From positions 40,100 to 104,099 of IMG/VR virus record IMGVR_UViG_3300042558_005069: DNA of 64,000 nt, one strand, 5' to 3'. Positions within the stretch are counted from its first letter, which is position 1. Every line of letters begins with the position of its first letter. Below are positions 11,347-53,273 of the stretch, one piece after another. The position numbers and the translations under genes were made by a program. The DNA comes from a virus. Below the pieces are notes generated by a model, which did not search any database, was not told where the DNA came from, and was given only the letters and a program-made list of their open reading frames with translations.

Positions 11347-11375
11347 TTCCCCTCCTATGGATTTAATTTTGCATA

Positions 11376-11798
11376 CTACCTTGGCGTTACGATTCTTGTC
11401 ACATCTGCAGCAGATAAATATATAACACAATTTCTAACAACCAAAGATCCAGCAACATCTTCAACCGAAAGACCGATTGCGTCAATTGGGACATTGAACC
11501 TAGCGGCCAATGTGGCACGAATTTTTTCCACTCTTAGTTCTTCATCAACAAGACTTGGTCCATCATCGTACGAGGAGAGAGGAGTTGGTTGAGGAGAAAA
11601 AAGACCCCTTAATTCTTCTTCTCGCCCATCTGTGCGCAAACACAAGACACAAGTTATCTCCTCTGTCCTGGCTGCTCTTTTTCTACTTTCTGTATGTCCA
11701 CAGTCAAGCGTGTGTAGATACTGAAATTTACCCCAGGCACCAACGCGATCGACGCTGACAACACGGCGACGTGGGGCGCGCCTGTGTTCAGTTGTCAT
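11376..11798 (-). CDS. Hypothetical protein (CGH...CxxC)
   Basis: 140-aa ORF co-oriented within the operon. Confidence 0.6.
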   Translation of the reverse strand: MTTEHRRAPRRRVVSVDRVGAWGKFQYLHTLDCGHTESRKRAARTEEITCVLCLRTDGREEELRGLFSPQPTPLSSYDDGPSLVDEELRVEKIRATLAARFNVPIDAIGLSVEDVAGSLVVRNCVIYLSAADVTRIVTPR

Positions 11799-28100: not shown

Positions 28101-31100
28101 CCTCGTATACAAATTCAATTCGTTCGCTTATGGCGAGCCTGTCTGTGCGCTTGACTCTTCCCTGGAAAAGGTTGGTCAATTCACCTTCTGTCATGTCGTC
28201 GACATTTTTACCACTATTTATAATTTCATCAAAAATCGTTAACGCTTCAGCAGCTGTCTTTTTCTCGATTTCACGACGCTCTAACAGCGAAGCCGAATCT
28301 TGAATTGCTCCCGAACTAAAGCGAGCAGATCTTTCCGATGAACCCATCGCGGCGAGTCTTTCAACTCTTCTTCCTCCAGGTATTTGACTTCCTCCGGGGG
28401 CGGACATGTTTGATCTAAATTTACCCGATCTAGAGAATTCCTCAAGATCAGCTTCGCGCATTCTTACGCGCACCCGTCTATCTAGTCCGGAGTGAAATCT
28501 GTATCCAATTTCATCAAGCTTCGTCTGCAGTTCAGCCGTAGAAAGAGAAAGTAGCATATCCCTCACGTCAGGGCTTATCGAATCAGCAGACAATTCTGGA
28601 TATTTCTTAGACCCTCTTCCAGCCAAGACCGATCTTAGTTCGTTTACGTCAGAGGAAATTTGTTTAGTTCTTCGTCGTGTTCTTTGTTGCCGACTCTCTC
28701 TTGACCCTAAAACGTCGTCCCTGACTGCTCCGCTGGAAAACCTTCCGTCATCGGCCAGTATCCCCTCGCCAAAATATCCATCAAGGTCAGCCAGGTCCCC
28801 ATTTATGCGTGAGTTTGTTTCTCCTATTGATGAGTTGTCATCTGAACTAGGGCCTACTACCCGACCACTTGAGCGCATGTCAAGGATTGCTTGATCTATC
28901 ACTGGTCTTATTTTTCTTACTGCGCCGTCACGCCATATTTTGTCATCTACTATGCGAGCAGATCCTCGATCGTATCCTTCAGTGAGCGTTTGAACAAATC
29001 TGTCGGCGACCTCGACCGTATCCATCTGGCGAGCAGCTTCGACTATTAGCGATCCGTCATCAGAGCGACCGATTATCCTAAAGGAACCCGGAGGCATGAC
29101 AAAATTCTGAGCACCGGAATCTTGCTGACCAGGAAATATTCCCCTATCCCCTTCTCGAACTCGAATAATTACTCGCACTCTATTCTTTAAGGTTGCTTCG
29201 TTCTTTTTGTCTGCCCTTGAGACCGCTGGAATCACGGCGTTGCTTCTAGATACAACCCCAGAAACAAAACCATCCTGCTCGACAATTCTGCCGATGGAAT
29301 TCCCCATGGTTTTTCCGGGAGCTATTTCCATTATGGCTTCCATCTCGAAACCTTCCGATGCGGAAGATCTGTCAAATGCCTCAAGTGCTGGAAGTAGTAT
29401 GTTCTTCACTTGCGCCGTAAGGTCTGCTTGCCCGGACTTGCTGTCATTTACCGCTAAGTTATTCCTAATTCTTCTTGCCGTAACTCTGTTGATCGCTCTG
29501 CCTGTTTGAACCTGAAGCTCGGGAGAAAGCATCAAAGCAATCGGATTCTCCTCAAAATCTGCAATTTCCCTTAAAGCTGCCGCTTGCTGTTTGTTGATTG
29601 ACCTGCGATGTCTTGCTCTCTCAGCAGTCGCAAAGTCCGCTACGTCTTGAGCCTTTTTAAATTTCTTGGATGGTTTTGGCTTTGGAGAGATTGTTTCTTC
29701 AATTTTCTCTTCAAGATCGCGCAGAATCCTTGCCCTGCTACGCTTGTCTCCGTTTTTAACAGATCTTTCTACATGCTCATTTTTCAGGATTTCTATTCCT
29801 GTTGCGATTTCTAGAGCTTGTGTTGAACCAGGCTCAATTGAAGGAAAGAGCCTGGTTGATCGAACAACTTCAGACAAGATGTCATCTTCCGACATGTCCT
29901 TAGCTCTATCGGTTAGCTCGTTCAGGGATAGTTGCTGAGCTGCCATTCTGGCTTGATCCGGAGTCCAGAGTCCAGCCCTCTCTCTGGCAGATACAACGTC
30001 GTCATCGAATCTTTCCAGCTCTCCGCGGGCACCTACCCCATATTTCTTGCGCCAAGCTTTTTTAACGTCATCATATTTTTTTTGATTAATATCAGAACGC
30101 TTTTGCCATGCGCTCATTAACATGTCTCTGTGTTGGCGTTTTAGATCTGTAAGGCGAGGGTCTTCATTTGGATCATCTAGGATGTCCTGCTCGCGCAATG
30201 GTTTTAAGGAGAATTCTTCAATCGTGTCAACATTTAACGAATGTAATGCAGCCTCGTCTATCATCTCATTTTCGGAAAGATTGGCTATATTGGATATGTA
30301 TTCTTTGAGTTGTTCTCTTTCAATCTCTTGCGTTGCTTCCATGTCTGAAGCTAGATTAACAAGATACTCATCTAACTGGTCAGCGTCCATTTGAGATACA
30401 GGAGTAGCAACTCCTCCTGCTTGAGTAGACGGAGCTCCTGCAGTGCTTGCTAAATCTGCTGCATCAGCATCAACATCTGAATCGACTCGCGCAACCCGAG
30501 ACGGCCTAGCTGCTGCATCATCTATAAAACTAAGTGCGGAATCTACGTCCTCCCCCCATACCAAACCAGCTTCGCGTAAACCCCAAATTTCGGCGGAAGC
30601 CTCAAGGCCCCATCTTTCGCTTCCAGCATAAGTGTCAGGATAAATACCAGCAAGCATTCTGACGTTTTCAATTTTAGACAATGCATTGTCAAGGTCTTTA
30701 ACGTCTATCGAATCATTCATCTTATCCATTAGGTTAAATAAATCTGTACCAGTCATTTCTTCGATGCTTGATACAGTTTTAATCCCTAGAAACTTATTAT
30801 CTCTGTCATAAACGGGAACGTCAAGGCCCTCGGGTGATTGCATTTTTCTTTCGGCTTCCCTTAAGAACGCCAGACCTTGATACACGTGAGCAAATTCGTG
30901 TGCTCCAATAAATGCTGCAAATGTTTTTGGACCGCCTACGAGTCCAGCCATCCTTTTAGCAAAATGATTAGAGTTCACTAAGAAGTCGGCTACGGCTTCT
31001 TGCCCCGCTGCATCCGTTGCTGCTCCTACAGCGGCCACTCCTAATCGCTGGTCTGGCCTCAACGAAGGAAGCATTAATTCTTGATTGCTGAGAATCCTAT

Positions 31101-32690: not shown

Positions 32691-34400
<1,710 letters not shown>

Positions 34401-34535
34401 ATGGCTCCTATTGTGTGGGTGAATGACCATCGGGACATTGACCTATAAACTGTGTGGCAAACTATAACGTATCACGTTCCGAGCCTTAAAATTAGCAACA
34501 TTCAATGGCTTTAAGAAAAATAGTTTTTATCTTCC

Positions 34536-37500
34536 TTATTTGTTGATTATTTCTGGCGAGGTTTTTCTTTTTCCCTTACGTCCAGGAGCAGAAGGCTTGT
34601 ACACCGTCGTGCCTTCCCTTAAGCGGGTCTGGGCATTCCTCAACTGCTCACCGCTGAAGATGTCTTCTATTGTGTGGTTTGTGCCAAATATTTTATTAAA
34701 TTGATCAACGAATTCCTGCAATTCGGACCTCGAGAATCTAGGCACGTCGCCTAATCTTTTTGAAAAAGTCTTACCTCTTCTTTTTGCGGCAGCCTGCAGT
34801 ACGGTCCCCATTTCCCTGCTATTGATAATAAATTGCCTACTTTGAACACTGTTAAGGCTTGAACCAGGGAATGACCTATCAATGAATTCTGTTAAAGCTT
34901 CATACACGTTGGCCTTGGATGCCAAAAGCTCCTCATCCAGCTTTTGGCCTGCCTTATTTACGCCGAATACATCGCGAGCATTCGGGATGACCCCAGTTCT
35001 GATCATTTCCGCAATATAGGCAATGGGTACTCCATCTTTTTTCCACTCTTTCACGGCGTCTTCACCAAGTCCAACGTCTACCTTCTTCACGTCGTCTGGA
35101 TCAAGTTCGGCGTCTACCTTCTTCACGTCGTCTGGATCAAGTTCGGCGTCTAAATCCTCTCCAAAAGCTTTTTCCAGGATTGGCTTAAGTTGCTTCGGCC
35201 ATTCATCTTCCGATATGCCGAGATGGTCAAGAAGTTGCGATAAAGTAAAATCTGCTCGCTGAACACGGCTACCCTTGCCTCTGCGGGCGTTGCTGGCAAT
35301 ATCAGGGGGAAGGGCCTCGAAAGCCTCGCCCATAGTTCCTTGATAGCTTAATTCTACCTCTGCCTCTGAGTCGTCCCTTGCGGCAGGAGAATTCTCGAAC
35401 TTGCCTACGGCGTTGAATCGTCTTGCTCCGTCCTCCAGGTCATCAAACTCTTCCGCGGTAAGCATCTTCCCTGACCCATAGATCTCCTCCTCGGCGATCC
35501 CCCCTATAAAGTCTCCCCTGTCGTGCCAGTATGGATAAGCGTCTGCTCCAAATGTTTCGATAATAAAACGATCTCTCATGTTTGCACGGCCGGTATTTTC
35601 GACGAGTCTTTCTATGGCGTTCATGCCTTCTTCTTCGGCTTCCATATCGGATACTGGAGAAAACAATCTCCACCCGCTAAATTCTGGCTGACTACCAATT
35701 TCGGCCAATAGATACCTTACGGTGTCGTGCGTGAGCGCAGCCGTATCGCCCTTAAGCTTTGCTTCTTCCGTAACGTTAAGTCCAAGGAGTTTTGCTAGTT
35801 TCGGGATGGTAAGCGGCTCTGACTGGGTCCAATATACCCCCACTTTGGGAGTAGCCACGTCCACGACCTCCTCCCCTTGTAGCTCCGAAGTTATAGTTCC
35901 TCTGGATATATCTTCTTGCCTGCGCCATCCAGTAGGGATTCTGACGGTGTCAAGTAGTTTGCTTATCGAAAGCATCCATGAATCACCGGAAGGATCATTG
36001 TTTGCAAAATTGTCGGTTGTTTTACCGATCTTAACGACTCTTGATCCGTCGCTTTGCTTTCTTGCTCGCATCCTTTCTCCGACTTTTATGATGTTGTCAT
36101 TAATTTTTTTTGCACGATCATTCTTCGATGTTGAATTTTGATCTGCTGGCATATCTAAGGCAATGCCTGTCTGATTGAAGGCGTTCCAGAATTGCATCGC
36201 ATAACGAGTTACTCTGTCTCTATCTTGAGGGTCAATGCGCACATCTGTACGTATTCCTGCGAGCTCTAGGGCAGATAGGCGCTGCTGCATTCCTGCCCTA
36301 TTCTCAAATCTGCTCACGCGTCTTCCGAACCTGCCCTCTGGAGTTCCAGTTATTTTTGAAGCCCTACTCGAACCTTTTGCTACATCAGGAGCTTCCTCGG
36401 ATGTTTCCGAAGGTTCCGCACCTGAAGAGAATCCAGCATCAAAATCTTCATCAAAATCATCATCATCATCATCTTCAGCCTCGATCGTGCTTATTTCGTC
36501 AAGCTCGTCAAGCACATTGTCAGCGTCGTCCACAGTCAGGTCCTCGTCTGAAATCCCCCGCCCGTCATCTTCTCCCTCTGGAAACTGAGCGGCTGGGTCA
36601 AACATTGGACCATCGATAATTTCGCGTGCTCGTTCTCTCATTATGCGGACGGAAGCATCACGTAACGTTTCTTCCGAAACATTTGCGTCGGCAAATTCAT
36701 CCATCACTTCTTTTCTTCGTTTGATGAACCCTTGTGTTGCTACGTCAGGTACGCCTATTCGTCTCATTTCAGCAATTAATTCATCATCCGGAAGACTCAG
36801 GACGCTTCTTCTTGAAGCGTTAAAATCGGTTAGGTCTTTCCCTTCCGCGGCATACTCTTCTATTTCTCTATACACTTTTGGCAATTTGTCGAGTGATAAT
36901 TCACTCTCTCTGTCAAAATCTTCTGGCAAAATTTTACGTTCGACACCGTCGCGAATGAGGTCTGCAATTTCTTTACGCTTTTGACCTTCGGCAAAGTGCG
37001 CCATCCACATTCTCGGTGATAGTGATATCGCTCTCATAGCCCTAGTTACGACCACGTGTTGAAGATTCATTTCTTCTATCCAGCCCGGAGGTCCCGAACC
37101 GTTGCGCTTAGCTGCTTCAAGAATGTCTACGTTTAAGTCATCGTCAGGATCTGTAAAGTCATCAAGCACCAGAACAAATTTTCCTTCTTTGCCTTTTGCT
37201 GTTGTTCCAGTTTGTATGACGACATCACCACCGCGTTTTTTTGCACTTTTGCGAACAGCATCACCAATGAGGTTTATTATTCTTGTAGCTTCTTCTGGGT
37301 CATCTTTTGCATCTATGACGAATCCGTCATAATCTCTGCCCTTTGCGCGGCTCACCTTCGGGCCAACTCCGAAGCTCAGTCTCGTCCTCGACTGAAGCCC
37401 TAGGCGATCAAGTATCCCTAAAGTGTCGGACAGGTATGCTCCATCGAAGTTCCTTCCGGAAGTATCCGGGTACTTGTTCGGATCTGCATATACCGCCTGA

Positions 37501-40500
37501 GGTCTTCCAGTATCGACTCCGTCACCAGAAAGAATTAATTTTCCAGTCCATTTAAATTGTTTAGTTGCATAAAAAGTTTCACGTGGATCTGTGCCCGTGT
37601 TTGATCTGCCAGCTGTAGCTGTCATAACAAGTTTATTTCGCATTCTTCGAAAAGCGATTTTTTCTAGTTCTTCTACCGTTTCAGCTTCTCCAAACTCAGC
37701 AATTGTCTCAAACTTTGGGGTTCCGTCAGCCTTTGTCCACTTCGATGTGACTCTTAATCTTTCTCCAGGCTGATCTGGTATTTTTTCTACAATAACCTGA
37801 AAGTCATCTGGGTTAATAGCATCTTGGCCGTCTTTGAAATCATATTCAAGTTCAAAATAAACAGCATCCTTGGTTCCTTTTGCATCAGGCTGTACAACAA
37901 ATATTTTTGTTGCGGCGTTAACATCTGATGATTTTGAACTCCTATCTGTACTTGACAGAATCTGACTAAGAGTTTTTTCTTCAAACTCCATCAAGCCTAG
38001 ATCAAGGCTGTCCCTCATTGGCCTGATGCTAGAAGAACGGTGCGACTTTGTCCCATCCGCAAGCACTACTCCGCCACCCCTTAGGGAAACAAGCATCTGG
38101 CTTGCAAACATTGTCTGAGATCCGGCTGGTTGTCCGTCTACTGGTTGAAACAACAATTGATACAATGAATTTCCTGGAGATTTTGATTTTAATTTAAATC
38201 TTTCTCTTATTGTTGCCATATCCCAATAATCTCCGATTAAAGGTGATTTTTCTGGTTTTCTTCCAGGGTTTAAACCGGCTGCAGTTTTTTCAGCCCAGTC
38301 AATATGTTGAAAGAAATCAACAGCTTCTTGCCATGCTGACTGAGTTAACATTATTTGAGGTTTGTCTTTTGAACTTAAAGGCTTAACGAGTTGATCAAAT
38401 TCATTTTGAGTTAGATTCTGGGAATCACGCAGTGTTTCTGGATTGTCGATTCTTCCGCCAAGGAAAACTGCACTTTCAAGGAATAAGTCTTTCCATGTTT
38501 GAACTGCTAAATGGACAGTTTGAACTTTTCCACGCGACAGAGCCATGTCTGGCAAATTACCAAAATAAACTTCTTCTTTTTCATCGACAACTCGAGTGCT
38601 TAAGGCTTTTGCAATTTTAGTTTTTGCGTCGTCTATTTCTTTTCTTAATTCAGTAAGCGCTTTTGCTCTTGCTTTTGGCGTCATTCCTGCAAAGTTTTCA
38701 CCGTTTAAATATGAATCAAAACTAACTCCATAAAGTCGCTTAACAGTATCGTTAACGCTGTTTGCTGCACCAAAATCGCCAGCTTTAACAAATGAAAAAA
38801 TATTTTCTATGTGTCGTTTAGCTGCCGTGTCAGCAGCCCCTTCAACGTATTTCCACTGCTCTGCAGTTAACGGTTTGCCTTCATCCAAGAGATCCTGAAG
38901 TAACTTATTTTCCCGACCAAGAATGAGCGTCGCCATGTACCCGAGAAGACTACCAAAGCGAAATGACTGTGTTAATTTCGGCACAAAATCGGGAGAAATT
39001 GACTGCATTATATTCTTTGAACCGTTGAAGCCAAGTATCTGCTGTCTGTCGTCGCCGACTGCTATTGTAGAAACTCTTTCTTTATTTCTGTTTAGTAATT
39101 CTTCCCAAACTTCATTAAGGTCTTGTGCTTCGTCGATCGCAAAAAGAGATATAGGTTTTTCTTTTGATGCGTATTGTTTTTTCAATTTGCCACGACTTCC
39201 ATCGATAGAGACCACAACCCATGGTTCTCCTTCCGATTTGTCCCATTGACGTATAGACGAAATTCTTCCAGTTTGCGGATCTATTACTTCATCATAAAAT
39301 TTATTATTTTTTCCATAATAGACAACATCGCCCCTGCGTATATTAAATTGTGCAGGTATTTTTTCATTCGCTAGGCTGTCTTTGCTTCCGTGCCCAAGAG
39401 CACCAGGATTTGTTGATAGATCCGGATCGGCGAGCAGTAGCAGTTTTGGCAACTGCCCCTGAGTTGGGAGCAACATGCCGTTTCCATCAACCAATTCATC
39501 TGCGGCTTTTTTGACATATGAAAGCCATTCATCCATCAGTTTATCTGGAACGTTTTGAAGTTGTTCATCGATTGCTTGTGTTTTTTTCTGTGCCTTTTTA
39601 GTTGAGAATCTGCCGGTCATCGTGTCAGTTTGCTCGCGGAAGCTTAGATTAAAAACATCTTTTGTGACTTCCGGGTTTGAAGACAATGACCACCTTCTGA
39701 ATGCCATTGCAAGGTATTCGCCAAAAAAGTCTACTTCGATCCAATTATTCCCGTCAGGCATGGTAAAAGGGACATCATACACTTCAATATTTTTAGTTTT
39801 TGCCTTTTTGCCTTTTCCTCTTGTAACGCTTATTGTTCTTCTGGGAAGACTCACACCAGCTTTTTCGAGAAATGCAAGCATGTCCTTGCCAGTTTCCACG
39901 GTTGAATAGCCAAGATCTTTGTAGTTAGGCCTGTATCCAATGAATTGCATACTCTCTGAGTCATGCTGTCTTCTTGCTTGGTCATAACCATCCACAGTTA
40001 TGGGTTGGTTTCTATTTTTAAACGATCTTCTTCTTGCATAGTCAGTTAGTAGTTCTATTTTTCTTCTCATCGACGGCGCATTTAATATTCTATTTTCCGG
40101 GCTGTCATTTTCTGCGATTCCTTGACGCAAGGACCAGTAAGCAAGCTGAGTAGTCGTTCCTATTCCTGTGTTCCCAGGAAATGATTCAGCTGCTTCTAGG
40201 CGGTTTTCTTTACCGAAAACCGTGTAGTAGATTGTCGGTTTATTATCTTCCGTTACTCCACGAGATTCTCCCAATTCCCTGATTGCTTGGATTAGGGTTT
40301 TTTCATCTGTGCTCTCTGGCCAAAAAACATCAACGTCTTCAAAACCTTTTGCTGGGTACTTAGCTGCAAGATAATTTGCTTTTTTTAGTAGCTGTTGCTT
40401 TCTAGTAACAGCATCTCCGGCAAATCTTTGTAGAATGTCATCAACGCTAAATTCAGCATTGATTGCTGCTGCGAGCATCTTCATTGTGGTTGTTTTACCG

Positions 40501-43500
40501 GAACCCGCTGCCGCATCAACTCCGATAACTAATTTTTCTTGACCGTATACAGCTGCTAATCCAAGATCAATAATGTCTCGCTGTTCATCCGTAGGAGGAA
40601 CAAGAAGATTAAGAAGAGACTTAACGTCTGTTGAAGCAGGAGTTCTTCTTACGGGTCTTTTTTTCGATCCACTACGAGCATTTATTGGATTTCCGCCACT
40701 GGCGAATCTTCCGTCGAGCGTAAGCGCCCTGCCCTGAGAGTCGGACACAGAGGCAATATCGCCATACATACGCTCTTCTTTTGACTGAGAGCCATATTTT
40801 CTTCTGTCTTTTGAAGAAGAAAGGTCTGAAGTGTCAGTAACGTCGTCCTCTTTGTCGAGGAAGGGAATTCCACTGGAGAAACGTTTGTCGATGTTGTCCG
40901 CTCTATCAATAAGGTCAATGTCTCCCATTGGGCCGCTGATTGGTCTGCTTGTTGGTACTTTTGGTGAATCCTCATACCCTTCTAACATTGAAAGCGGAAC
41001 GGTGTCTCTTGATGACTTTTTAGCTTTTCTTTCGTTATCCTCCATGCCCGATAGACGCCGCAATGTTTTGGATCTATTTAGCATCCAGTCAACGGCTTGC
41101 TGCGCTTGACCCATGGCAGTCTTGATAGCGTTTGGATCGTTTCTAATCTTTTCTGCCCAGAATTTTAGATATCCTATGTGATCTTCTCTAACCATGGGCG
41201 AAATGCCAAGCATTCCCAGCAAAAAGGAAGACCCAACTTCTGCTATGAGCTCCTCAAACGCGTACGCCGGTGACCCATATTTTGCAACTTGAGGTCTATT
41301 GTTCCGGCTTGGATGCCCAGTCCAGTGCGTCATTTCGTGCAATAGGGTTGAGTAATAACTTTCCGCATCATTAAACGTTTCGAACGGCGGCATATTTATG
41401 AAGTCGCCGTTTGGAGAGAAAAATGGCCCGCCAACATTTGACTCTCTTAATCTTGGATTTAATTCTTTAACTATCGCTTCTGCATTTTTAACACGAGCTT
41501 TTGGACTCAGGTTTTCCAGGTCGATTTCTGGCTTATACATTTCAGGAGGCAGACCATCAATATCCGCTACGTTATAGACTTCTTCAACTTTGTACTGACG
41601 TGGATCTGATCCAAGTATCGGAACTAAGATATTTACAGGACGAGCATTCGGCGATGCTTTCCCTTTAAATTTTTTCCATTGACTTATCCCTGCCCATTTA
41701 TTGGTTTCGTAACCACGTGATACCGCTATGGAGTTTAACAACATACGGTTGGTCCCCTGGTAGGACCAGCTTTTTTGACCTTGGTTCTTCTTTGTTGGGT
41801 TTCGGGGGTTGTGCTCCCCTTCTCTCCATGGCATATTCCATTTGAATTTTTCTGGATTATTTACAGCTTCTTGAAGCATTTCAAGAATTTGTTTGCCAAT
41901 TTGAGCGTAGTATTCATCGATTACGGCTCTGCCCTCAGCTGTTGCCGTATCTACTATGTCGCCAGGCTTTAGAGAATTATTACCGTCTCCTCCTGAAGAA
42001 AACTTTCCAGTAGAAGAAACTTGGTTAAAAAAGCCATCGAACTTAAACCGCTCATCTATGGTTTTGTCGCTTTCGCGTTTTCTTAGAAAATCCAAATAGT
42101 TTTTGTTTTTTGCCTGAGCCTGCTTCCTGGCCGCAGACATAGATCTACTTATCTCTTTTTTTGGTTTTGCTGTTACTATTTCCCGCGAACCACTGCCTAG
42201 CGGCCGAGCTTCTGTTCCCGCTACCGAGGAGCGCTCTGGGGCTTCAATTTTACCGGGGACTTTTGGATTATTGATTGAGCCTGGACCGTCTGGTGTTGGG
42301 TCGGGCTGCTCAAGAGAAGTACCACGAAGGAATATACCTTCGCCCACAATCCCATTGAGGTTGCGGTCAATAGCTGTCCTTGGATCAAAATTCTCAGCAT
42401 TTGGGGTCGAGAAAAATCTACCTGCAGATCTTGCTCCCCCGATGCCGGGTTTATTATTGGCTCTACTTCCTATGGCTCTTCCGAGCCTGTAGGCGGATAC
42501 CTTAAATTCTAGATCGTCACTGATTAAACTTTTTTTTTTTAAATTATCTAAAGCTGTATCGATAGCGTCAATCAACTCATAAGAAACACCATTTGTTATT
42601 ACTATTCCTTCTGGGTCAACATACGTATCTACCTTATGGTAGTCAAATACTGGATCTAACGCTTGCTTTACGTGAAAAGCATAATCTGTGGATACTGGCA
42701 GGAAATACGGCTTTTCTGGTTCAAAAGAATCTTCAAACGTACCGAACTCGGCTAGATGTTTGAATTTCCGCTTTTTTCTTCTTTTTCTTTTTACTATTCC
42801 ACGCAGTCCGGCAATAAACAGCTCTCCTGGATACTTGAACTCAAAGTCAGCAATATATTCGTTTTCGTTATCCTCTGTCTCGAATTCGTATTCTTTTTTG
42901 GCCATAAAGTCGCCTTTTACAACACCTGGTGGGATTATGGCAAAGCGACACTTCCCTTCAGGCTCTATTGCCATGTCGATAATCTGGCAGCTGTTGTCCT
43001 TGTTATAAAAAACGCAGTTTGAGCATTTAACCCCAATTCCAGCAACTGGATTTTGTGCAGCTGGTTTGTAGCCTGCCCAAATTCCATCAGAATCTTCGTT
43101 TATTTTTCCGTGACGCTTTACGATCTTTAGTAGTGCGTCTCTGAGGTCTGACTCTTCTTGATCCAGGTCATCGGCACTAATTGGCTTGCGGCTCTGCCCT
43201 TCGTACTGCACTGCTGGTAGGGGTACCACCGTCATTCCGTTTGGCCCTGGCTTTATGGCAATGGGAATCGATGGCATCTGGCTCGGACGAACAACCCTCT
43301 GAGGATCTACCGGAGGCAACCCGCCAACAGGCATAACTGGAGGTGAAGTTTGAGGCTTAGCAACGATCACTATTCTTTCTGGAGCGCCAAACATAAAGCG
43401 GCCATTGCCACCTCTGGAAAAATGACATTTATACTTTTCCATTGAATTTGACTGGTCTGTTCTGTTGAAGGAGACCATTCCGTTGTCTTCGTCAACTTCC

Positions 43501-44159
43501 GTCACAGAGACTTGATTTCCAAGAACTTTTTGCAATTCTATTTCTAGCTCATCGCTCATGGATGGACGTTGCTGAACCATAGGGCCGGAAGGGCTCTCGA
43601 CGTCGTAAGTTCCTGGCATCCCTGCTTTTACCGAAATAGTGCCTGTTAGTTGATTTGCTCCGTGGAGAACTGGGCTAACTTCGTAGAGTTCAAGCTCGTA
43701 GATTACGTTTGCTTGAGATTTTTGGTCAAATTGAGCTCTAAGAGTTTTGTAGCCTATTGACCACTCTTGGTCTTCGCCAAAAAAAGCAACATTAGCGAAT
43801 GCTTCTTTGCCCTTTTCTGAATTTAAATTAAACTGGACACGGGCAAAAAGTCCTCCTATGCCAGCCATTTTCATTTTCATTGGCAGTCTTGGATCGGTGG
43901 ACGGAACTTCGTATATCTCTAGAACTTTGCCAATCGGGTCATTCCAGTTATGACCCCACACCACACGAGGCTTGCGCCGCATCAGGCTTTTGGTAAATGC
44001 TCCGCTCTGAACGATATCGCCAACAGAATCTTTGTTCCCTATTCCGGAAACGAAGCACTCGACCATGCCTTGAGCCTCGTCAAGATTCAGTACGCCGGAT
44101 TTTCCGTTGACAACGGACGACATTGAACCAGCTTTATATTCAAAAGAATTTCCGGACAT
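34536..44159 (-). CDS. Prohead protease-polyvalent fusion, polyprotein C (3207 aa): HK97 protease, HiPIP-like, ArdC, SF1 helicase, unknown C-terminal domain
   Basis: Protease: DSVGDIVQSGAF, WGHNWNDPIG, EWSIGY, LYEVSPVLHGAN. ArdC: WNMPW...YQGTN...LLHEMTHWTGH...YAFEELIAE. Helicase: AAAGSGKTT, DEAQD, GDDRQQI, LTQSFRF, VVVTRA. FSSG/FASG at 41991, 40869, 40695 and 36420. Confidence 0.92.
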   Translation of the reverse strand: MSGNSFEYKAGSMSSVVNGKSGVLNLDEAQGMVECFVSGIGNKDSVGDIVQSGAFTKSLMRRKPRVVWGHNWNDPIGKVLEIYEVPSTDPRLPMKMKMAGIGGLFARVQFNLNSEKGKEAFANVAFFGEDQEWSIGYKTLRAQFDQKSQANVIYELELYEVSPVLHGANQLTGTISVKAGMPGTYDVESPSGPMVQQRPSMSDELEIELQKVLGNQVSVTEVDEDNGMVSFNRTDQSNSMEKYKCHFSRGGNGRFMFGAPERIVIVAKPQTSPPVMPVGGLPPVDPQRVVRPSQMPSIPIAIKPGPNGMTVVPLPAVQYEGQSRKPISADDLDQEESDLRDALLKIVKRHGKINEDSDGIWAGYKPAAQNPVAGIGVKCSNCVFYNKDNSCQIIDMAIEPEGKCRFAIIPPGVVKGDFMAKKEYEFETEDNENEYIADFEFKYPGELFIAGLRGIVKRKRRKKRKFKHLAEFGTFEDSFEPEKPYFLPVSTDYAFHVKQALDPVFDYHKVDTYVDPEGIVITNGVSYELIDAIDTALDNLKKKSLISDDLEFKVSAYRLGRAIGSRANNKPGIGGARSAGRFFSTPNAENFDPRTAIDRNLNGIVGEGIFLRGTSLEQPDPTPDGPGSINNPKVPGKIEAPERSSVAGTEARPLGSGSREIVTAKPKKEISRSMSAARKQAQAKNKNYLDFLRKRESDKTIDERFKFDGFFNQVSSTGKFSSGGDGNNSLKPGDIVDTATAEGRAVIDEYYAQIGKQILEMLQEAVNNPEKFKWNMPWREGEHNPRNPTKKNQGQKSWSYQGTNRMLLNSIAVSRGYETNKWAGISQWKKFKGKASPNARPVNILVPILGSDPRQYKVEEVYNVADIDGLPPEMYKPEIDLENLSPKARVKNAEAIVKELNPRLRESNVGGPFFSPNGDFINMPPFETFNDAESYYSTLLHEMTHWTGHPSRNNRPQVAKYGSPAYAFEELIAEVGSSFLLGMLGISPMVREDHIGYLKFWAEKIRNDPNAIKTAMGQAQQAVDWMLNRSKTLRRLSGMEDNERKAKKSSRDTVPLSMLEGYEDSPKVPTSRPISGPMGDIDLIDRADNIDKRFSSGIPFLDKEDDVTDTSDLSSSKDRRKYGSQSKEERMYGDIASVSDSQGRALTLDGRFASGGNPINARSGSKKRPVRRTPASTDVKSLLNLLVPPTDEQRDIIDLGLAAVYGQEKLVIGVDAAAGSGKTTTMKMLAAAINAEFSVDDILQRFAGDAVTRKQQLLKKANYLAAKYPAKGFEDVDVFWPESTDEKTLIQAIRELGESRGVTEDNKPTIYYTVFGKENRLEAAESFPGNTGIGTTTQLAYWSLRQGIAENDSPENRILNAPSMRRKIELLTDYARRRSFKNRNQPITVDGYDQARRQHDSESMQFIGYRPNYKDLGYSTVETGKDMLAFLEKAGVSLPRRTISVTRGKGKKAKTKNIEVYDVPFTMPDGNNWIEVDFFGEYLAMAFRRWSLSSNPEVTKDVFNLSFREQTDTMTGRFSTKKAQKKTQAIDEQLQNVPDKLMDEWLSYVKKAADELVDGNGMLLPTQGQLPKLLLLADPDLSTNPGALGHGSKDSLANEKIPAQFNIRRGDVVYYGKNNKFYDEVIDPQTGRISSIRQWDKSEGEPWVVVSIDGSRGKLKKQYASKEKPISLFAIDEAQDLNEVWEELLNRNKERVSTIAVGDDRQQILGFNGSKNIMQSISPDFVPKLTQSFRFGSLLGYMATLILGRENKLLQDLLDEGKPLTAEQWKYVEGAADTAAKRHIENIFSFVKAGDFGAANSVNDTVKRLYGVSFDSYLNGENFAGMTPKARAKALTELRKEIDDAKTKIAKALSTRVVDEKEEVYFGNLPDMALSRGKVQTVHLAVQTWKDLFLESAVFLGGRIDNPETLRDSQNLTQNEFDQLVKPLSSKDKPQIMLTQSAWQEAVDFFQHIDWAEKTAAGLNPGRKPEKSPLIGDYWDMATIRERFKLKSKSPGNSLYQLLFQPVDGQPAGSQTMFASQMLVSLRGGGVVLADGTKSHRSSSIRPMRDSLDLGLMEFEEKTLSQILSSTDRSSKSSDVNAATKIFVVQPDAKGTKDAVYFELEYDFKDGQDAINPDDFQVIVEKIPDQPGERLRVTSKWTKADGTPKFETIAEFGEAETVEELEKIAFRRMRNKLVMTATAGRSNTGTDPRETFYATKQFKWTGKLILSGDGVDTGRPQAVYADPNKYPDTSGRNFDGAYLSDTLGILDRLGLQSRTRLSFGVGPKVSRAKGRDYDGFVIDAKDDPEEATRIINLIGDAVRKSAKKRGGDVVIQTGTTAKGKEGKFVLVLDDFTDPDDDLNVDILEAAKRNGSGPPGWIEEMNLQHVVVTRAMRAISLSPRMWMAHFAEGQKRKEIADLIRDGVERKILPEDFDRESELSLDKLPKVYREIEEYAAEGKDLTDFNASRRSVLSLPDDELIAEMRRIGVPDVATQGFIKRRKEVMDEFADANVSEETLRDASVRIMRERAREIIDGPMFDPAAQFPEGEDDGRGISDEDLTVDDADNVLDELDEISTIEAEDDDDDDFDEDFDAGFSSGAEPSETSEEAPDVAKGSSRASKITGTPEGRFGRRVSRFENRAGMQQRLSALELAGIRTDVRIDPQDRDRVTRYAMQFWNAFNQTGIALDMPADQNSTSKNDRAKKINDNIIKVGERMRARKQSDGSRVVKIGKTTDNFANNDPSGDSWMLSISKLLDTVRIPTGWRRQEDISRGTITSELQGEEVVDVATPKVGVYWTQSEPLTIPKLAKLLGLNVTEEAKLKGDTAALTHDTVRYLLAEIGSQPEFSGWRLFSPVSDMEAEEEGMNAIERLVENTGRANMRDRFIIETFGADAYPYWHDRGDFIGGIAEEEIYGSGKMLTAEEFDDLEDGARRFNAVGKFENSPAARDDSEAEVELSYQGTMGEAFEALPPDIASNARRGKGSRVQRADFTLSQLLDHLGISEDEWPKQLKPILEKAFGEDLDAELDPDDVKKVDAELDPDDVKKVDVGLGEDAVKEWKKDGVPIAYIAEMIRTGVIPNARDVFGVNKAGQKLDEELLASKANVYEALTEFIDRSFPGSSLNSVQSRQFIINSREMGTVLQAAAKRRGKTFSKRLGDVPRFSRSELQEFVDQFNKIFGTNHTIEDIFSGEQLRNAQTRLREGTTVYKPSAPGRKGKRKTSPEIINK
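35075..35152 (-). repeat. Perfect in-frame 36-nt tandem duplication (DAELDPDDVKKV x2)
   Basis: cgtctaccttcttcacgtcgtctggatcaagttcgg twice plus a 6-nt partial copy. Confidence 0.95.
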
Positions 44160-44255: not shown

Positions 44256-46358
44256 CTATACTGTTTGAGCAAAAAGCCAGACCGATCGAGCTTCTGATTC
44301 AGCTATCTCAAACTGATCATGAGCAAGAAGGTTGGCATACATCTCTCCAATTCCTTGCCTAAACGCTCTGAGTCTTTCTTCTTCGTTTGAAAAATCAAAA
44401 GACTTAATCATCAGATTGTATATTTCTGAAGATATATCGCTGTTAAGAGATTTTATTTTCATCAGGTGAGACTCGATAGTTTTTACAACATCAATTGTCG
44501 GAATGGACTTAACTTTAATCCCATTTTCTGATTTAAATTCTTTTCGTGAATCGAAAGAATCATTAATGATCGATGTGAGCACGGGCTTTATGTCGTCTTC
44601 CATCTGTCTATTCCAAACATCAACAGCCAGTACCTGCTCAATATCGAGAGTCCCAGCAGAAAGGGCTTTTTTGGCTTTTGCTCCAGAAGATTTCTCCATG
44701 ACAACTCTTTGCTGACGCTCTAGCAGTCTTTCGATACTGCGAGCTAGTATCTCCGACCATCTCTCGATGGCTGTTTGACATTTTTCATCGTATGTCTCGC
44801 TGAGCGATTTTGTCTCGATGGAGGCTTGACGTTCCCCCGCTGTTGCCATTTGCTGCTGCGGCATCCCCTGCGTGATTGCTTCCGATGGGATTGTAGTCTG
44901 AGCCAAATCGCCAGCTGGAGGAGTTGCCTGCCCGGCCATGGATTCGGCGATTGCCCCTTGCATAGTGTTTGGATCGAGCGGAGGAGGTGCTCCTTCCATC
45001 CCTGGCTGTCCTGGCATACCTGGGGGCATCCCTGGCATACCTGGGGGCATACCTGGCATACCTGGGGGCTGTCCTGGCATACCTTGCTGCTCCCCCATCA
45101 TCGCCTGATTTTCTTCCATTTTTTTCTTTGTGTTGGCAATTGGAATAAGATTTGGATTCATAAGCAAAGAGTCAGCGAGGTCTGCTTCTACTTCTTTTCT
45201 TGAAGAGCCGGTCCGGTATTCGTTTGCACTGATTAATCCAGTCTGAAATTCCTGGAGCAAATACCTGTCTCGCTCCTGCTTGTAGAGCATTAGGATTGGA
45301 ACTTCGGAGGTGTCGAAGTCTAAATAGTACTTATCGTCTAACTCGTCTAGCCCCCGAGCGAGTGGCTCTAAATGTGGAAGCATTGTTTCCATCCAGAAAA
45401 CACGGATTTCTTCTGCGGCATTGCTAAAAGTACGACCGGACGCATTTCCGATAACAGACTCAGGAACTCCGAAAGCTGAAAGAATTTCTTCTTTTGTTAT
45501 TTGTCGCATTTGTATGTATGCGGCGTCTCTGGGACTTGCAGATGTGTCGACAAAATCAACACCATCGTCTGATGAGATTACGGTTGTGTGACCGGCTTTA
45601 GACAAGTTTCCCCTAAATCTATTACGTAGCTCTTCTTTGTCATCGTCATCTATTTCTCCTCTTACTACGAGAAGACCGCCAGGTCTTCCATCGTTAAGTA
45701 AATAGTTCCTATTGTAAAGTTTTGCTAAGTTTTCTATTTCTATTGCCACCCCAGAAGCTTCAAGTGGAGTCAGTGAAAGATAAGGGTCAAGGGGGTGAGG
45801 TCTACGAATCCAGCAGACGTCGTCTGGCTTCATAATAACCTTGTCTCCGGTTGGCATCATGACTTCATAGCCTGAAACAAAAGTTTTTGGGTGAGGAATC
45901 GGAGATGTGGATTGTGGCGGAAGAAGGTTTAGGGCGACAATTCCTCCATCGCGGCCACGAATTTTCTCTATAAACGCTCCTCGCGTTCCGAGAAGAAGCT
46001 GAGCTGAAAGCCTGTATCTGAAAATAAAAGAGTTTTCGCCTATGTTTGATTTTGTGTTCAGAAGCTCAAGGAGGGTTGATCTTTTGGCTTCTCTGCCAAC
46101 AACCAGTTCACCCATATTGGAGTTATCTTTACGCAAAACTATAGGTAGTCGCGCTTGGTTTCCTGCGATCGCATCAATGCATCGATTAACCCAGGTTATC
46201 TTAGACATTCCCTCGCGGTATGCGCGCTCTATGTCCCACGAGTCCCTGTATGGCTTTCCTGCAAATGAGGGATTCATCGAAACGGGAGCGCCGTATACAC
46301 CTAACTCTTTAGAGCTAGTGCTTTTAATTGATTTGTTTTGTGGTGTATTCCAGCCCAT
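44256..46358 (-). CDS. Portal protein (HK97 family) with Pro/Gly/Met-rich linker and C-terminal extension
   Basis: WVNRCIDAIA, LLLGTRGAF, LSLTPLEA, NDGRPGGLL, EILSAFGVP, GLISANEYR; extension ends IAESEARSVW, possibly a MuF remnant. Confidence 0.92.
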   Translation of the reverse strand: MGWNTPQNKSIKSTSSKELGVYGAPVSMNPSFAGKPYRDSWDIERAYREGMSKITWVNRCIDAIAGNQARLPIVLRKDNSNMGELVVGREAKRSTLLELLNTKSNIGENSFIFRYRLSAQLLLGTRGAFIEKIRGRDGGIVALNLLPPQSTSPIPHPKTFVSGYEVMMPTGDKVIMKPDDVCWIRRPHPLDPYLSLTPLEASGVAIEIENLAKLYNRNYLLNDGRPGGLLVVRGEIDDDDKEELRNRFRGNLSKAGHTTVISSDDGVDFVDTSASPRDAAYIQMRQITKEEILSAFGVPESVIGNASGRTFSNAAEEIRVFWMETMLPHLEPLARGLDELDDKYYLDFDTSEVPILMLYKQERDRYLLQEFQTGLISANEYRTGSSRKEVEADLADSLLMNPNLIPIANTKKKMEENQAMMGEQQGMPGQPPGMPGMPPGMPGMPPGMPGQPGMEGAPPPLDPNTMQGAIAESMAGQATPPAGDLAQTTIPSEAITQGMPQQQMATAGERQASIETKSLSETYDEKCQTAIERWSEILARSIERLLERQQRVVMEKSSGAKAKKALSAGTLDIEQVLAVDVWNRQMEDDIKPVLTSIINDSFDSRKEFKSENGIKVKSIPTIDVVKTIESHLMKIKSLNSDISSEIYNLMIKSFDFSNEEERLRAFRQGIGEMYANLLAHDQFEIAESEARSVWLFAQTV
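44998..45085 (-). repeat. MPG(M/Q)PPG coding repeats in the portal
   Basis: Imperfect 21-nt units (cctggcatacctgggggcat...). Confidence 0.85.
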
Positions 46359-46639: not shown

Positions 46640-47953
46640 ATGGATAATAAACCCAATTGGGCGGAGGTCCTCGAATACCTTCAACCTAAGGAACCTCCAT
46701 TTTGCCCCGAGGAACCCTCTATTAACCAAAAAGTATTTCTTCGCACGAACGCTCTAGAAGCGTTGTTCGGGGGAGCGGCTGGCGGTGGAAAAAGTTCAGC
46801 ATTGCTAATGGCAGCATTGCAGTACGTTGACGTACCTGGATATTCTGCACTTCTTTGCCGTCGTACATTTGCCGACTTATCGCTCCCTGGAGCATTGATG
46901 GACCGTTTTAAGTCATGGATGAGCAACTATGACGATATCCATTGGAATAACAACACTTTTATTGCTACGTTTCCATCGGGAGCAAGAATATCCTTCGGTT
47001 ACCTCAATAATGTCAACGATTATCTTAGATATAAGGGTTCGGAATTTCAGTTCATAGGGATGGACGAAGTTACGGAAATACGTGAATCTGACTACAGGTA
47101 TTTGTTTTCTCGCCTCCGTCGCCCAGCTAACGGTCCAGTTTCGCAAGTCCCACTAAGAATGCGATGTGCGTCAAACCCTGCTCCAAACTGGGTGCGTCAA
47201 AGATTTATAGTTGAAGGAAAAGAAACAAATAGAATTTTTGTACCCTCTACGCTGAAGGACAACCCAGGAATTGACGCCGACTCGTACAGGCAGTCATTGT
47301 CCGCACTCGACCCCGTTGAGCGGCGAAGACTGGAAGAAGGAGACTGGTGGTCTACGACTCTTGGCACAATGTTTGACAGAACATCATTTGAGATAATAGA
47401 CCCAATTGACATCCCGATAATAACCAGCGCAGCAAGAGTGGTTCGTTTTTGGGACCTTGCAGCTACGGAACCAAGTGCCTCAAACCCTGACCCAGACTGG
47501 ACTGTCGGCACTTTAATGCTTTTCAATGGCGGCGTAGCTTATGTTTTGGACGTAAGGAGAGCAAGAGTTCGGGGAGAAAAAGTAGAACAATTAATTTCTC
47601 AGACATCAATAGAAGATGGGCATGGGGTAGCGATACGCATGGAACAAGAACCAGGCTCCTCCGGAAAAGCATTGCTGGATCAATACGCTAGATACGTAGT
47701 TCCTGGCTACGATTTCGGCGCTGTACGCGCTACGGGGGACAAAGTGACCCGCGCTAGACCATTCGCTGCAGCGGTAGCCAATGGAAACGTTCGGTTAGTT
47801 CGAGGTCCGTGGATAACTGGATGGCTTGATGAATTTGCCTCTTTCCCGGAAGCCTGCGACCACGACGACCAAGTCGACTCGGCTGTTGGAGCATTTACTC
47901 ATTTAACGGGCCTTGGGTTGCCACAGAGAAAACGAGCATCTATACTCATCTAG
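46640..47953 (+). CDS. terL: Terminase large subunit
   Basis: GGAAGGGKS Walker A, GMDEVT Walker B, ASNP, FWDLAA and HDDQVDS nuclease motifs. Confidence 0.95.
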   Translation: MDNKPNWAEVLEYLQPKEPPFCPEEPSINQKVFLRTNALEALFGGAAGGGKSSALLMAALQYVDVPGYSALLCRRTFADLSLPGALMDRFKSWMSNYDDIHWNNNTFIATFPSGARISFGYLNNVNDYLRYKGSEFQFIGMDEVTEIRESDYRYLFSRLRRPANGPVSQVPLRMRCASNPAPNWVRQRFIVEGKETNRIFVPSTLKDNPGIDADSYRQSLSALDPVERRRLEEGDWWSTTLGTMFDRTSFEIIDPIDIPIITSAARVVRFWDLAATEPSASNPDPDWTVGTLMLFNGGVAYVLDVRRARVRGEKVEQLISQTSIEDGHGVAIRMEQEPGSSGKALLDQYARYVVPGYDFGAVRATGDKVTRARPFAAAVANGNVRLVRGPWITGWLDEFASFPEACDHDDQVDSAVGAFTHLTGLGLPQRKRASILI

Positions 47954-52142: not shown

Positions 52143-52429
52143 AATTTATAAAAAGAAATAAATCACTATTCCCAGAAAAACTAACAACGCATTGGGATTC
52201 CTTGCCTCATAAAAGATATTCAAGCATGAACGACGATGATCTTTGTCCTTGGAACCTGAGCCCAAAAACAATTGACGAGTTTGTGTTGGCATGTGATCAA
52301 CGAAATGAGTGGCACAAGAATAATGCTGGAGATCCTCGTTACTCCTGGTGGTCATGTCTATTGACCCACGATCTAATGGAAGACATCGCAAGAACGTTAA
52401 AGGAAATTAAAGATGAACAACATTCATAA
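52139..52429 (+). CDS. Hypothetical protein
   Basis: 96 aa; ATGA overlap with the upstream gene. Confidence 0.6.
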   Translation: MKFIKRNKSLFPEKLTTHWDSLPHKRYSSMNDDDLCPWNLSPKTIDEFVLACDQRNEWHKNNAGDPRYSWWSCLLTHDLMEDIARTLKEIKDEQHS

Positions 52430-53273
52430 TTCTCTACAGCACTTGGCGGTTGACATATTGGACCTAATTCCACTTGAGGACAATCCCAGAAAGGGAAATG
52501 TTGACGCGATAGCATCTTCTTATCTTGAGTTTGGGCAGATTAAGCCTATTGTAATTCGACCAAACGATGACGGAACTGCAACAATCATTGCCGGAAACCA
52601 CCAAGTCCAAGCAGCAAAGAAATTGGGATGGGATAAAATTGCTGCGGTTCCTTACGAAGTGGATAATCTTCGGGCGATCGCATTCGCAATTGCTGACAAC
52701 AGGACGATGGAACTTGGTTACACAGAGCCAGATCTGCTTAATAACGTTATTTTGGAGATTGGAGATTACTATCCTGAGCTGATTGAGGGCTTAGGATGGG
52801 ATGAATTTGAATTTGCCGAACTAGAACAAAAATCAATTCGAGAAGAAAATCAAGTGATTAGTTCAGGAAACTCCTACACTTCGCCTTCACTACAAACTCC
52901 CGCCAGCGATTTCGGAAACGGATTTGGAAACGGATTTGGAAGCCGCGAAGAAGAAGAAGAGCCACGTGCCCTACGAGAGTCTCCACGAATAGACATGAAT
53001 GCAATTTCGATGACAAAAGACAGAGACGGCAAAACTGAATTAAACGTGAGGTCTGGAGTTAATCAAGACGATGCAGTCGTGAGGGGATCAACAACCGTTT
53101 CTCCTTCATCCGCACCTCAGGCAGTTGTCCAGTACACAATAGTTTTTGATACTCATCAACAGCAGGCAAGGTGGTATGAATTTATAAAATGGCTTCGATC
53201 TGACCCCGCAGTTGCTGGAACCACAACAGCAGAGCGAATAATAGACTTCATCGATCAGCACATCGAGCTATGA
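52413..53273 (+). CDS. ParB/Srx N-terminal domain protein
   Basis: NPRKGNVDAIASS...FGQIKPIV...IIAGNH...AIADNR; FGNG micro-repeat. Confidence 0.85.
   Translation: MNNIHNSLQHLAVDILDLIPLEDNPRKGNVDAIASSYLEFGQIKPIVIRPNDDGTATIIAGNHQVQAAKKLGWDKIAAVPYEVDNLRAIAFAIADNRTMELGYTEPDLLNNVILEIGDYYPELIEGLGWDEFEFAELEQKSIREENQVISSGNSYTSPSLQTPASDFGNGFGNGFGSREEEEEPRALRESPRIDMNAISMTKDRDGKTELNVRSGVNQDDAVVRGSTTVSPSSAPQAVVQYTIVFDTHQQQARWYEFIKWLRSDPAVAGTTTAERIIDFIDQHIEL

Follow-up and report, generated by a model that had tools for sequence, protein, structure and literature searches.

The IMG/VR virus contig IMGVR_UViG_3300042558_005069 (104,099 bp, completeness estimate 65%), of which a 64,000-nt portion (hereafter, the window) was analyzed here, encodes on the minus strand of the window a giant open reading frame (ORF) that carries an S78/HK97-type prohead protease, an ArdC-like antirestriction protein, a superfamily 1 (SF1) helicase, and a large C-terminal domain in a single continuous frame (Table 1). 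We propose, with moderate confidence, that this ORF encodes a head-loading polyprotein, which would be made in two forms set by slippage and whose cargo would be encapsidated, cut at the domain junctions, and ejected together with the DNA. The proposal builds on what is observed in this phage and its relatives, namely the continuity of the ORF, the identity of its domains, the conservation of the architecture, the code formed by the junction motifs, and an A-run that is flanked by stop codons in the other frames.

According to this proposal, the N-terminal module (N-module), in which the HK97-type protease is combined with a small alpha/beta domain and a ~350-aa four-Cys core, would correspond to an ancestral protease of ~440-480 aa and would enter the procapsid in the way prohead proteases do. 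RNA polymerase or the ribosome would slip at a sense-strand run of 11 A residues (A11) in a fraction of events, and the gene would then yield both a protease-only form of 60 kDa and a read-through form of 357 kDa. The latter would pull an exchangeable cargo (ArdC, SF1 helicase, and a lineage-specific C-terminal domain) into the head. A phage protease would cut at (R/K)-[F/L]-[S/A]-S-G in disordered linkers, and the freed pieces of 42, 159, and 70 kDa would exit with the DNA. Inside the next host cell, protection of the entering DNA against restriction would fall to ArdC, and the target of the helicase would be this DNA or host complexes bound to it.

A wider generalization, in which a freshwater phage lineage with genomes of ~155 kb would use Gag-like and Gag-Pol-like forms in a ratio set by slippage, swappable anti-defense cargo, and a genome-wide [F/L]SSG code at which a phage protease would divide head cargo as well as the tape measure into injected proteins that act separately, is put forward tentatively, as something possible rather than probable. 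Polyvalent proteins are widespread weapons of phages and plasmids that are largely still predicted, and their loading, dosage, and cut sites are the questions of the field. The lineage described here provides handles on these, i.e., a loading module (the near-invariant protease), a candidate dosage device (the A-run), and an abundant candidate cleavage peptide. The family is abundant in lakes: the stretch is carried by 20 lake-water metagenome runs, with no RNA run listed among the holders, and relatives are encoded at at least 562 IMG/VR loci. Moreover, the polyprotein would offer a natural scaffold to load foreign proteins into capsids.

Table 1. Features of the giant ORF and of other genes in the window. 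Positions refer to the window; aa numbers refer to the respective protein. AF2, AlphaFold2; pLDDT, predicted local distance difference test; CDS, coding sequence.
Feature	Position	Strand	Remarks
Protease-cargo polyprotein, entire ORF	34536..44159	(-)	3207 aa, 357 kDa, stop-free
S78/HK97-type prohead protease domain, aa 25-180	43620..44087	(-)	Pfam, PHROG, NCBIfam matches
Small helix-plus-sheet domain after protease, aa ~198-266	43362..43568	(-)	AF2 pLDDT 80-89
Conserved four-Cys cluster C379, C382, C391, C404 in N-terminal core	42948..43025	(-)	4 of the protein's 6 Cys
Sense-strand A11 run, codons L-K-K-K-S, aa 540-544, CDS nt 1620-1630	42530..42540	(-)	Candidate slippage site
Linker aa 545-719, mostly disordered, partly conserved	42003..42527	(-)	Spans slippery run to first junction motif
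Junction motif 1, K-FSSG, aa 720-723	41991..42002	(-)	
ArdC-N single-stranded DNA (ssDNA)-binding domain, aa 749-840	41640..41915	(-)	Pfam ArdcN
MPTase-PolyVal zincin, aa 892-1015, HEMTH aa 941-945	41115..41486	(-)	Pfam, 117 bits
Junction motif 2, R-FSSG, aa 1094-1097	40869..40880	(-)	
Junction motif 3, R-FASG, aa 1152-1155	40695..40706	(-)	
UvrD/FBH1-like SF1 helicase core, two large inserts, aa ~1190-2400	36960..40592	(-)	Pfam, PHROG
Junction motif 4, G-FSSG, aa 2577-2580	36420..36431	(-)	Acidic tract before motif
C-terminal domain, aa 2581-3207 (627 aa)	34539..36419	(-)	AF2 pLDDT 76.8
Portal gene	44256-46358	(-)	Directly upstream of giant ORF
Large terminase (TerL)	46640-47953	(+)	Divergent
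579-aa ORF between two giant ORFs	32691-34430	(-)	N-terminal four-Cys cluster, acidic tract
Second giant ORF, 2524 aa	25111..32685	(-)	3 FSSG; HIxxHExxHxxQ-type zincin signature, HEFAH aa 596-600 (30886-30900); syntenic
Major capsid protein (MCP)	18923-20308	(-)	Downstream; Q-L-[ST]-S-[SR]-E at aa 94-99 (~20012-20029)
4564-aa ORF	2-8188 + upstream (genome 34593-48287, L001:4593-18287)	(-)	14 [FL][SA]SG motifs bracketing modules
Probable tape measure, >=901 aa, cut by contig end	61296..64000	(+)	After sheath, tube, chaperone; FASG, FASG, FSSG + VSSG
WhiB-like transcription factor gene	11005-11430	(-)	
Ribonucleotide reductase, PAPS reductase (cysH-like), ParB-like nuclease/partition protein, RNase E-like protein, primase	13325-15250 (+), 53270-54400 (+), 52413-53273 (+), 8539-11008 (-)		Interspersed with structural genes

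Continuity and domain content of the giant ORF

The continuity of the reading frame, for which read mapping had been recommended by a first-pass annotation made from the sequence alone, was confirmed with Logan contigs from four lake-water runs, three of which are not flagged as a possible source of the record. These contigs tile the entire giant ORF with neither indels nor joints. Full-length relatives comprise 3187 aa at 80% identity and 3284-3312 aa at 57-58% identity. Among the IMG/VR loci encoding relatives, ORF sizes and gene order were examined in 80, and the complete polyprotein ORFs in these span 2874-4909 aa, the exceptions being two contigs with an A9 run (L051 and L060). Since the ORFs of the latter are split at the A-run, one could suspect that the long ORF is an assembly or frameshift artifact joining separate genes. 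We consider the probability of this negligible: the four runs are free of indels, dozens of independent assemblies contain ORFs of 2874-4909 aa, and the splits occur solely at the homopolymer, as slippage or a sequencing error at this position predicts.

The genomic context is conserved as well. Wherever the contig extends far enough, the portal gene is followed by the polyprotein, an ORF of ~540-580 aa, and a second giant ORF of 2000-2760 aa; in the window, the polyprotein ORF starts 96 nt past the portal gene. The search for architectures combining protease, ArdC, and UvrD, which had likewise been suggested, returned at least 232 clustered giant relatives with S78, ArdC-N, MPTase, and UvrD domains. 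Against 33 distinct relatives, the protease reaches a median identity of 83%, compared to 46% in the core (aa 181-650), 44% in ArdC, 37% in the C-terminal domain, and 23% in the helicase, and relatives vary in their cargo, with sigma-70 region 4, pentapeptide repeats, or extra helicases being found, or ArdC missing. Fixed ends combined with a variable middle are the pattern expected of a constant loading device with arms-race cargo. Comparison of these sequences indicates that the fusion is a real, conserved, and selected trait of a large phage lineage.

The domain content described by the first-pass annotation was recovered throughout, i.e., HK97-type maturation protease motifs within the first ~180 aa and directly after the portal gene, an ArdC protein with an ssDNA-binding N-domain and an HEMTH zincin, a UvrD-like helicase with big insertions, an unassigned domain of ~630 aa, and FSSG/FASG sequences as separators. 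For the protease, the Pfam family Peptidase_S78 (PF04586) matched aa 31-174 with 42 bits compared to a cut-off of 21 (47.3 bits in the genome search), and this domain represents the only S78 match in the 104-kb contig. PHROGs matches of the giant ORF comprise a head maturation protease, an anti-restriction protein, and a DNA helicase. TIGR01543 (proheadase_HK97) matched aa 32-179 with 50.9 bits, which is under the equivalog cut-off of 59. Judged by these profile scores, the protease is a member of the S78/HK97 family and not a strict HK97 equivalog. Nearly all columns of the protease domain are invariant in 12 relatives, including His70 (within WGHNW) and Ser134 (within WSIGY), which are found in 12 of 12 and which, by motif resemblance, are the candidate catalytic residues. 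A comparison of the protease domain with PDB sequences yielded no match. The small domain following the protease (aa ~198-266) gave cystatin/NTF2-like matches with Z scores of 6-6.6, which lie below the level at which the tool supports a fold claim and are therefore a weak lead. Within the core (aa 181-650), the four-Cys cluster is invariant among relatives; ESM Atlas gave no usable match for the N-terminal core.

In a separate observation concerning the protease domain, two of the lake runs (X16 and X17) were found to have extra contigs whose flanks are unlike and which overlap only the part from 43654 to 43781 of the window, where depth rises from ~7 to 21-28. It thus appears that the protease core is nearly identical at the DNA level among related phages that occur together.

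Stand-alone versions of the protease are encoded by more distant relatives on two contigs from metagenome-assembled genomes (MAGs), L086 and L087 (PBNR01000075.1 and PBNR01000003.1). Their protease comprises 441-447 aa, the small post-protease domain being present in the 441-aa protein of L087, and the gene order is terminase, portal, protease, an ORF of ~600 aa, and a giant ORF without junction motif. Such an arrangement looks like the module in unfused form. Stand-alone proteases are also known from cultured phages, with 484 aa in GMA6 and 417 aa in Cantare. In the lineage described here, cargo seems to have been added onto an ancestral protease while a way to produce a protein of the ancestral length was retained.

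Regarding the cargo, the ArdC part (aa ~725-1093) aligns to residues 27-293 of R388 ArdC (6SNA/6I89) with E=7e-32, and the HEMTH sequence (HExxH) as well as the downstream Glu helix FEELIAE of the zincin are retained. The helicase displays its motifs in the proper order, with Walker A at aa 1219, motif II (DEAQD) at 1676, III at 1702, IV at 1732, V at 2320, and VI at 2369; the assignment of motif Ia is tentative only. Pfam matches to UvrD-helicase/AAA_19 cover aa 1657-1716, and the P-loop was matched at aa 1202-1236. The inserts amount to ~450 aa between motifs I and II and ~590 aa between motifs IV and V, and the domain sizes depart from those of the canonical 1A/1B/2A/2B arrangement of UvrD/Rep/PcrA. 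Based on its motifs, we classify the helicase as a divergent SF1A member with large inserts. The closest solved relative by sequence is FBH1, the alignment to which covers motifs II-IV.

For the C-terminal domain, Foldseek searches against PDB and BFVD returned nothing at E<=0.001, ESM Atlas gave no usable match, and the best Z score in a wide VIA-align search was 4.6, which was confined to the last ~100 residues; no fold was assigned. Its profile was found only in this polyprotein family, and always in C-terminal position, among 1.84 billion representatives. Inside this domain, the acidic 11-residue sequence ELDPDDVKKVD is tandemly duplicated (aa 3006-3028, window 35076-35144, minus strand), with the two copies being one residue apart.

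Junction motifs and the A11 run

The modules of the polyprotein are set off from each other by F[SA]SG sequences (Table 1), and at least four such sites were obtained in only 1 of 5000 residue shuffles of the protein. The contig contains 19 copies of F[SA]SG, all of which are located in four giant ORFs (the 4564-aa ORF, the 2524-aa ORF, the 3207-aa polyprotein, and the ORF at the contig end), and none was found in the other ORFs of at least 80 aa. When L was allowed at the first position, the observed counts were equalled in 0 to 11 of 5000 shuffles. The motif sites use varied synonymous codons, and therefore the constraint acts on the peptide.

The same sequences characterize the relatives. 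In nearly all of 120 relatives, the top-enriched 4-mer is LSSG, FSSG, or LASG, with up to 18 copies compared to ~0.1 expected, and the motif logo reads (R/K/G/S)-[L 82%, F 14%]-S-S-G-(R/K/A). Polyproteins contain 2.78 motifs per 1000 aa, which is ~12 times the density in the ordinary, remaining ORFs of the same loci (0.235), and the value for other giant ORFs is 1.39. In alignments, the motif forms a conserved island within gap-rich linkers, in which F and L interchange. The first site is typically located at aa 620-740, right after the N-module, and the last one often bounds the C-terminal domain. Furthermore, some relatives harbor the motif at aa 24 of the next head-module ORF (the counterpart of the 579-aa ORF), a propeptide-like position, and near the C-terminus of the portal. 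Taken from these alignments and counts, the family-wide separator code is (R/K)-[F/L]-[S/A]-S-G. The polyprotein in this window mostly has F at the first position of the motif.

The most economical reading of the motif is that of a protease recognition site, cleavage at which would yield pieces of ~80, 42, 6, 159, and 70 kDa. Our literature searches for an LSSG/FSSG phage cleavage motif retrieved nothing relevant. Alternatively, the [F/L]SSG sequences might act as docking or flexible-linker motifs, contacting the capsid interior, the portal, or a chaperone, in a protein that stays intact like the N4 virion RNA polymerase. The N4 enzyme as well as plasmid ArdC/TraC1 indeed travel uncut (PMC5512222), and the motif resides in disordered regions, as is the case for short linear interaction motifs. 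We nevertheless judge an uncut protein with docking motifs improbable, since the motif is placed strictly between domains, with copies scaling with the number of modules, since it occurs at N-terminal propeptide-like positions in relatives, and since its basic flanks and its hydrophobic-small-small-Gly core resemble viral protease sites.

The second element on which the proposed head-loading polyprotein builds is the A11 run, the longest homopolymer in the 104-kb contig. In the AF2 model, it lies where the last helix of the N-module that is modeled with confidence ends, and disorder follows. Of 41 distinct relatives, 37 have a run of A9-A11 at the corresponding position, despite differing flanking residues. 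All three Lys residues of the run are encoded by AAA, which accounts for 59% of Lys codons overall. Both shifted frames stop ~1-5 codons past the run in each of the 37 run-bearing sequences, compared to 16% of random positions in these ORFs at which both frames are closed equally fast. It should be noted that relatives are non-independent samples, and the statistics on the A-run and its stop codons therefore count as support, not as proof.

The A-run predicts a short protease-plus-core product of ~545 aa (60 kDa), the size of which is near that of the stand-alone proteases of GMA6 and Cantare (417-484 aa) and of L086/L087 (441-447 aa). The cargo-bearing form is probably one of two products, and the coexistence of short and long forms would ease the stoichiometry problem of packing many 357-kDa chains. 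In L051 (10001-13218) and L060 (1526-4572), which have A9 and not A10, the ORF is split exactly at the run, leaving first ORFs of 536 and 548 aa, respectively, and second ORFs that contain the motifs. This split could be caused by real length variation at the DNA level or by a homopolymer sequencing error.

A precedent for such a device is dnaX of Thermus thermophilus, in which an A9 run with nearby stops leads to ~50% short product (tau/gamma) by transcriptional slippage (PMC1088944). Common to both genes are the A run in the sense strand and close stops in the other frames, with slippage being predicted from sequence for the gene described here. In both cases the zero-frame product is the long one, unlike in Gag-Pol. 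The likeness to retroviral Gag/Gag-Pol lies in the long form, which would bring enzymes into the capsid via an assembly protein, although in this case in a DNA phage. In the literature, we found no description of a retrovirus-like strategy of short and long forms in tailed phages.

Candidate cutting enzymes and comparison with known systems

As to the enzyme that would cut at the junctions, the S78 protease and a conserved zincin are about equally likely candidates. In favor of the S78 protease, which is nearly invariant and the only S78 match in the contig, six relatives retain Q-L-[ST]-S-[SR]-E in their MCPs where a delta-like N-terminal region ends, just ahead of the conserved body that can be aligned to solved capsid proteins. 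At this boundary, the invariant L-[ST]-S is the sole lead to a propeptide cleavage of the MCP. Moreover, polyproteins without ArdC/MPTase keep 9-10 motifs, and the motif positions in the next head-module ORF and the portal of some relatives also count for the S78 protease. Assemblin-fold proteases tend to favor a hydrophobic P3 and a small P1 residue, which L/F-S-S would fit.

The zincins under consideration are the MPTase of ArdC and the HIxxHExxHxxQ-type zincin of the 2524-aa protein. The latter protein had no Pfam or PHROG match, and its zincin is a candidate processing protease by sequence signature. Loading might take place as in the proposed model, with one of these zincins making the cuts, be it on precursors of tail and head while still in the cytoplasm or in the newly entered cell following ejection, in keeping with what Iyer et al. 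suggested for MPTase domains (PMC5512222). This variant, which we regard as rather unlikely but worth weighing, would agree with the published hypothesis on MPTase domains (PMC5512222), with the presence of the signature in 20 of 20 second giant ORFs, with the occurrence of the motif in the probable tape measure, and with relatives whose protease is 53-73% identical and which lack both the zincin signature and the motif. However, cuts made before packaging would part the cargo from its loading module, and the 9-10 motifs retained by polyproteins devoid of ArdC/MPTase as well as the invariant L-[ST]-S at the delta boundary of the MCP speak against a zincin as the cutter. Furthermore, no match to PF18818 was found in the 48-kb record around L093, which is ~30% complete and whose second giant ORF has HExxH motifs, and the zincin of the second giant ORF is a sequence signature without profile or fold support.

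Several points weigh against the head-loading polyprotein in the form proposed here. All functional steps of the model are inferred: packaging into the head, slippage, cutting and the enzyme responsible for it, exit with the DNA, and what the cargo does. The ORF at 61296-64000, by its gene position the probable tape measure, carries the junction motif and would assemble outside the head; a prohead-confined protease therefore cannot explain all sites, and literature on the cleavage of tape measures by prohead proteases was not found. In L086/L087, a protease domain with 53-73% identity is accompanied by a non-homologous giant ORF without the motif and without the zincin signature, and thus the motif does not simply track the S78 domain. 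No protease residue was found that tracks the use of F-type versus L-type motifs, and the MCP and portal of this phage contain no full [FL][SA]SG motif. The zincin signature of the second giant ORF is kept at aa 548-618 in all 20 distinct relatives, and nearly all of the relatives retrieved contain the motif as well as the zincin. Finally, slippage on A11 presupposes a certain behavior of the host RNA polymerase, and the A-run could instead be a phase switch at the DNA level, or functionless and tolerated.

The 4564-aa ORF looks like a second, larger polyvalent polyprotein. The modules bracketed by its motifs include GNAT (aa 1171-1227), a ParB-C-like domain (~aa 1422-1482), and an RNase T/DnaQ-like exonuclease (aa 1525-1750), and HExxH sequences are found at aa 2005 and 2917.

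Phage polyvalent proteins with ArdC-N/MPTase domains have been predicted to be packaged, injected, and processed (Iyer, Burroughs, Anand, de Souza, and Aravind 2017, PMC5512222). In that survey, ArdC-N and MPTase form the commonest dyad of polyvalent proteins, about one-third of which are phage-encoded, and the initial description of ArdC as mainly a plasmid factor is thus too narrow. By its domain content (S78, ArdC-N, MPTase-PolyVal, and UvrD-like helicase) and its portal-terminase context, the protein described here fits the polyvalent proteins, and a like fate is predicted for it. It shares with them the giant multidomain layout, the ArdC-N/MPTase dyad together with a helicase, the location beside the portal-terminase module, and the variation in cargo. 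In contrast to the survey (PMC5512222), in which an assemblin-like peptidase was 'always' located C-terminally, it is N-terminal and almost invariant here; the UvrD-like helicase, reported there only for a few actinomycete plasmids, is the rule in this lineage; and neither a junction peptide nor a conserved slippery A-run was found in Iyer et al. The ArdC unit is a predicted anti-restriction protein with full-length similarity to ArdC of the IncW plasmids R388/pSa (6SNA, 6I89), here embedded in a head polyprotein and flanked by junction motifs. Regarding the claim of the first-pass annotation that the fusion guarantees encapsidation of the cargo and its release for injection, the conserved fusion and the published prediction for polyvalent proteins (PMC5512222) fit encapsidation, but "guarantees" is too strong a word for packaging and ejection that are deduced.

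In T4 and SPN3US, it is established that proteins are first loaded and subsequently trimmed by the prohead protease, as is the case for the capsid-targeting sequence (CTS) proteins of the former and the ejection proteins of the latter (PMC7411985). For the SPN3US protease, a C-terminal propeptide has been suggested to direct the enzyme to the prohead core (PMC7411985). As with the internal proteins and Alt of T4 and with phiKZ/SPN3US, in which enzymes are loaded, cleaved by the head protease at a short motif, and then ejected alongside the DNA, the same course is proposed here. However, the cargo of T4 and SPN3US is encoded by separate genes with their own targeting propeptides, whereas it is covalently joined to the protease in this lineage, and their protease is of the T4 gp21 type with the motif L/I-x-E or A/S/G-x-E, as opposed to an HK97-type protease and [FL]SSG.

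In place of loading into heads, the gene could specify a late cytoplasmic polyprotein that is not packaged, the fusion serving co-expression, with ArdC and helicase acting after self-release in the producing cell, in replication, recombination, or packaging. A helicase and an ssDNA-binding domain could serve replication, and a primase as well as a ribonucleotide reductase are encoded nearby in the contig. We hold an unpackaged polyprotein to be highly improbable: all relatives have the gene between portal and MCP, the cargo belongs to the arms-race type and is exchangeable to a high degree, and the known setting of ArdC is action on entering DNA (PMC5512222). Furthermore, the modules found in sister giants (GNAT, ParB-like, and exonuclease) are typical of polyvalent proteins that are injected, and the unique conserved C-terminal domain points to a structural constraint acting on the entire chain.

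The closest cultured counterparts of the portal and the protease, with 38-46% identity, are those of the myoviruses GMA6 and Cantare. Both encode large head-module genes between portal and MCP, including an ADP-ribosyltransferase. Their protease is unfused and adjoins the MCP gene, in contrast to the fused protease described here, and no enrichment of [FL]SSG was detected in the head modules of GMA6 and Cantare.

The source phage, its host, and neighboring genes

Among 50,697 phage records, neither a near-identical nor a full-length protein-level relative was found, with only ArdC or protease parts giving matches. Four relatives are represented by complete genomes of 151-159 kb with terminal repeats; the identity of their MCPs to that of this phage is 77-82%. 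Because genes for sheath, tube, and tail chaperone are annotated in the contig, the phage is assigned to the myoviruses; it is an uncultured freshwater myovirus with complete relatives of ~155 kb.

A scan of prokaryote genomes for the host matched just 4 MAG contigs with inconsistent taxa, and no host call was made from it. The window encodes a WhiB-like protein, which suggests an actinobacterial host, as WhiB is regarded in the literature as a marker confined to Actinobacteria and their phages (PMC6802176). Furthermore, the nearest cultured portals and proteases are those of the actinophages Gordonia GMA6 and Brevibacterium Cantare. These two lines of sequence evidence make an actinobacterium the probable host. 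No family was matched by the 579-aa ORF that separates the two giant ORFs; genes for nucleotide and nucleic acid enzymes, as well as a PAPS reductase, are interspersed with the structural genes (Table 1).

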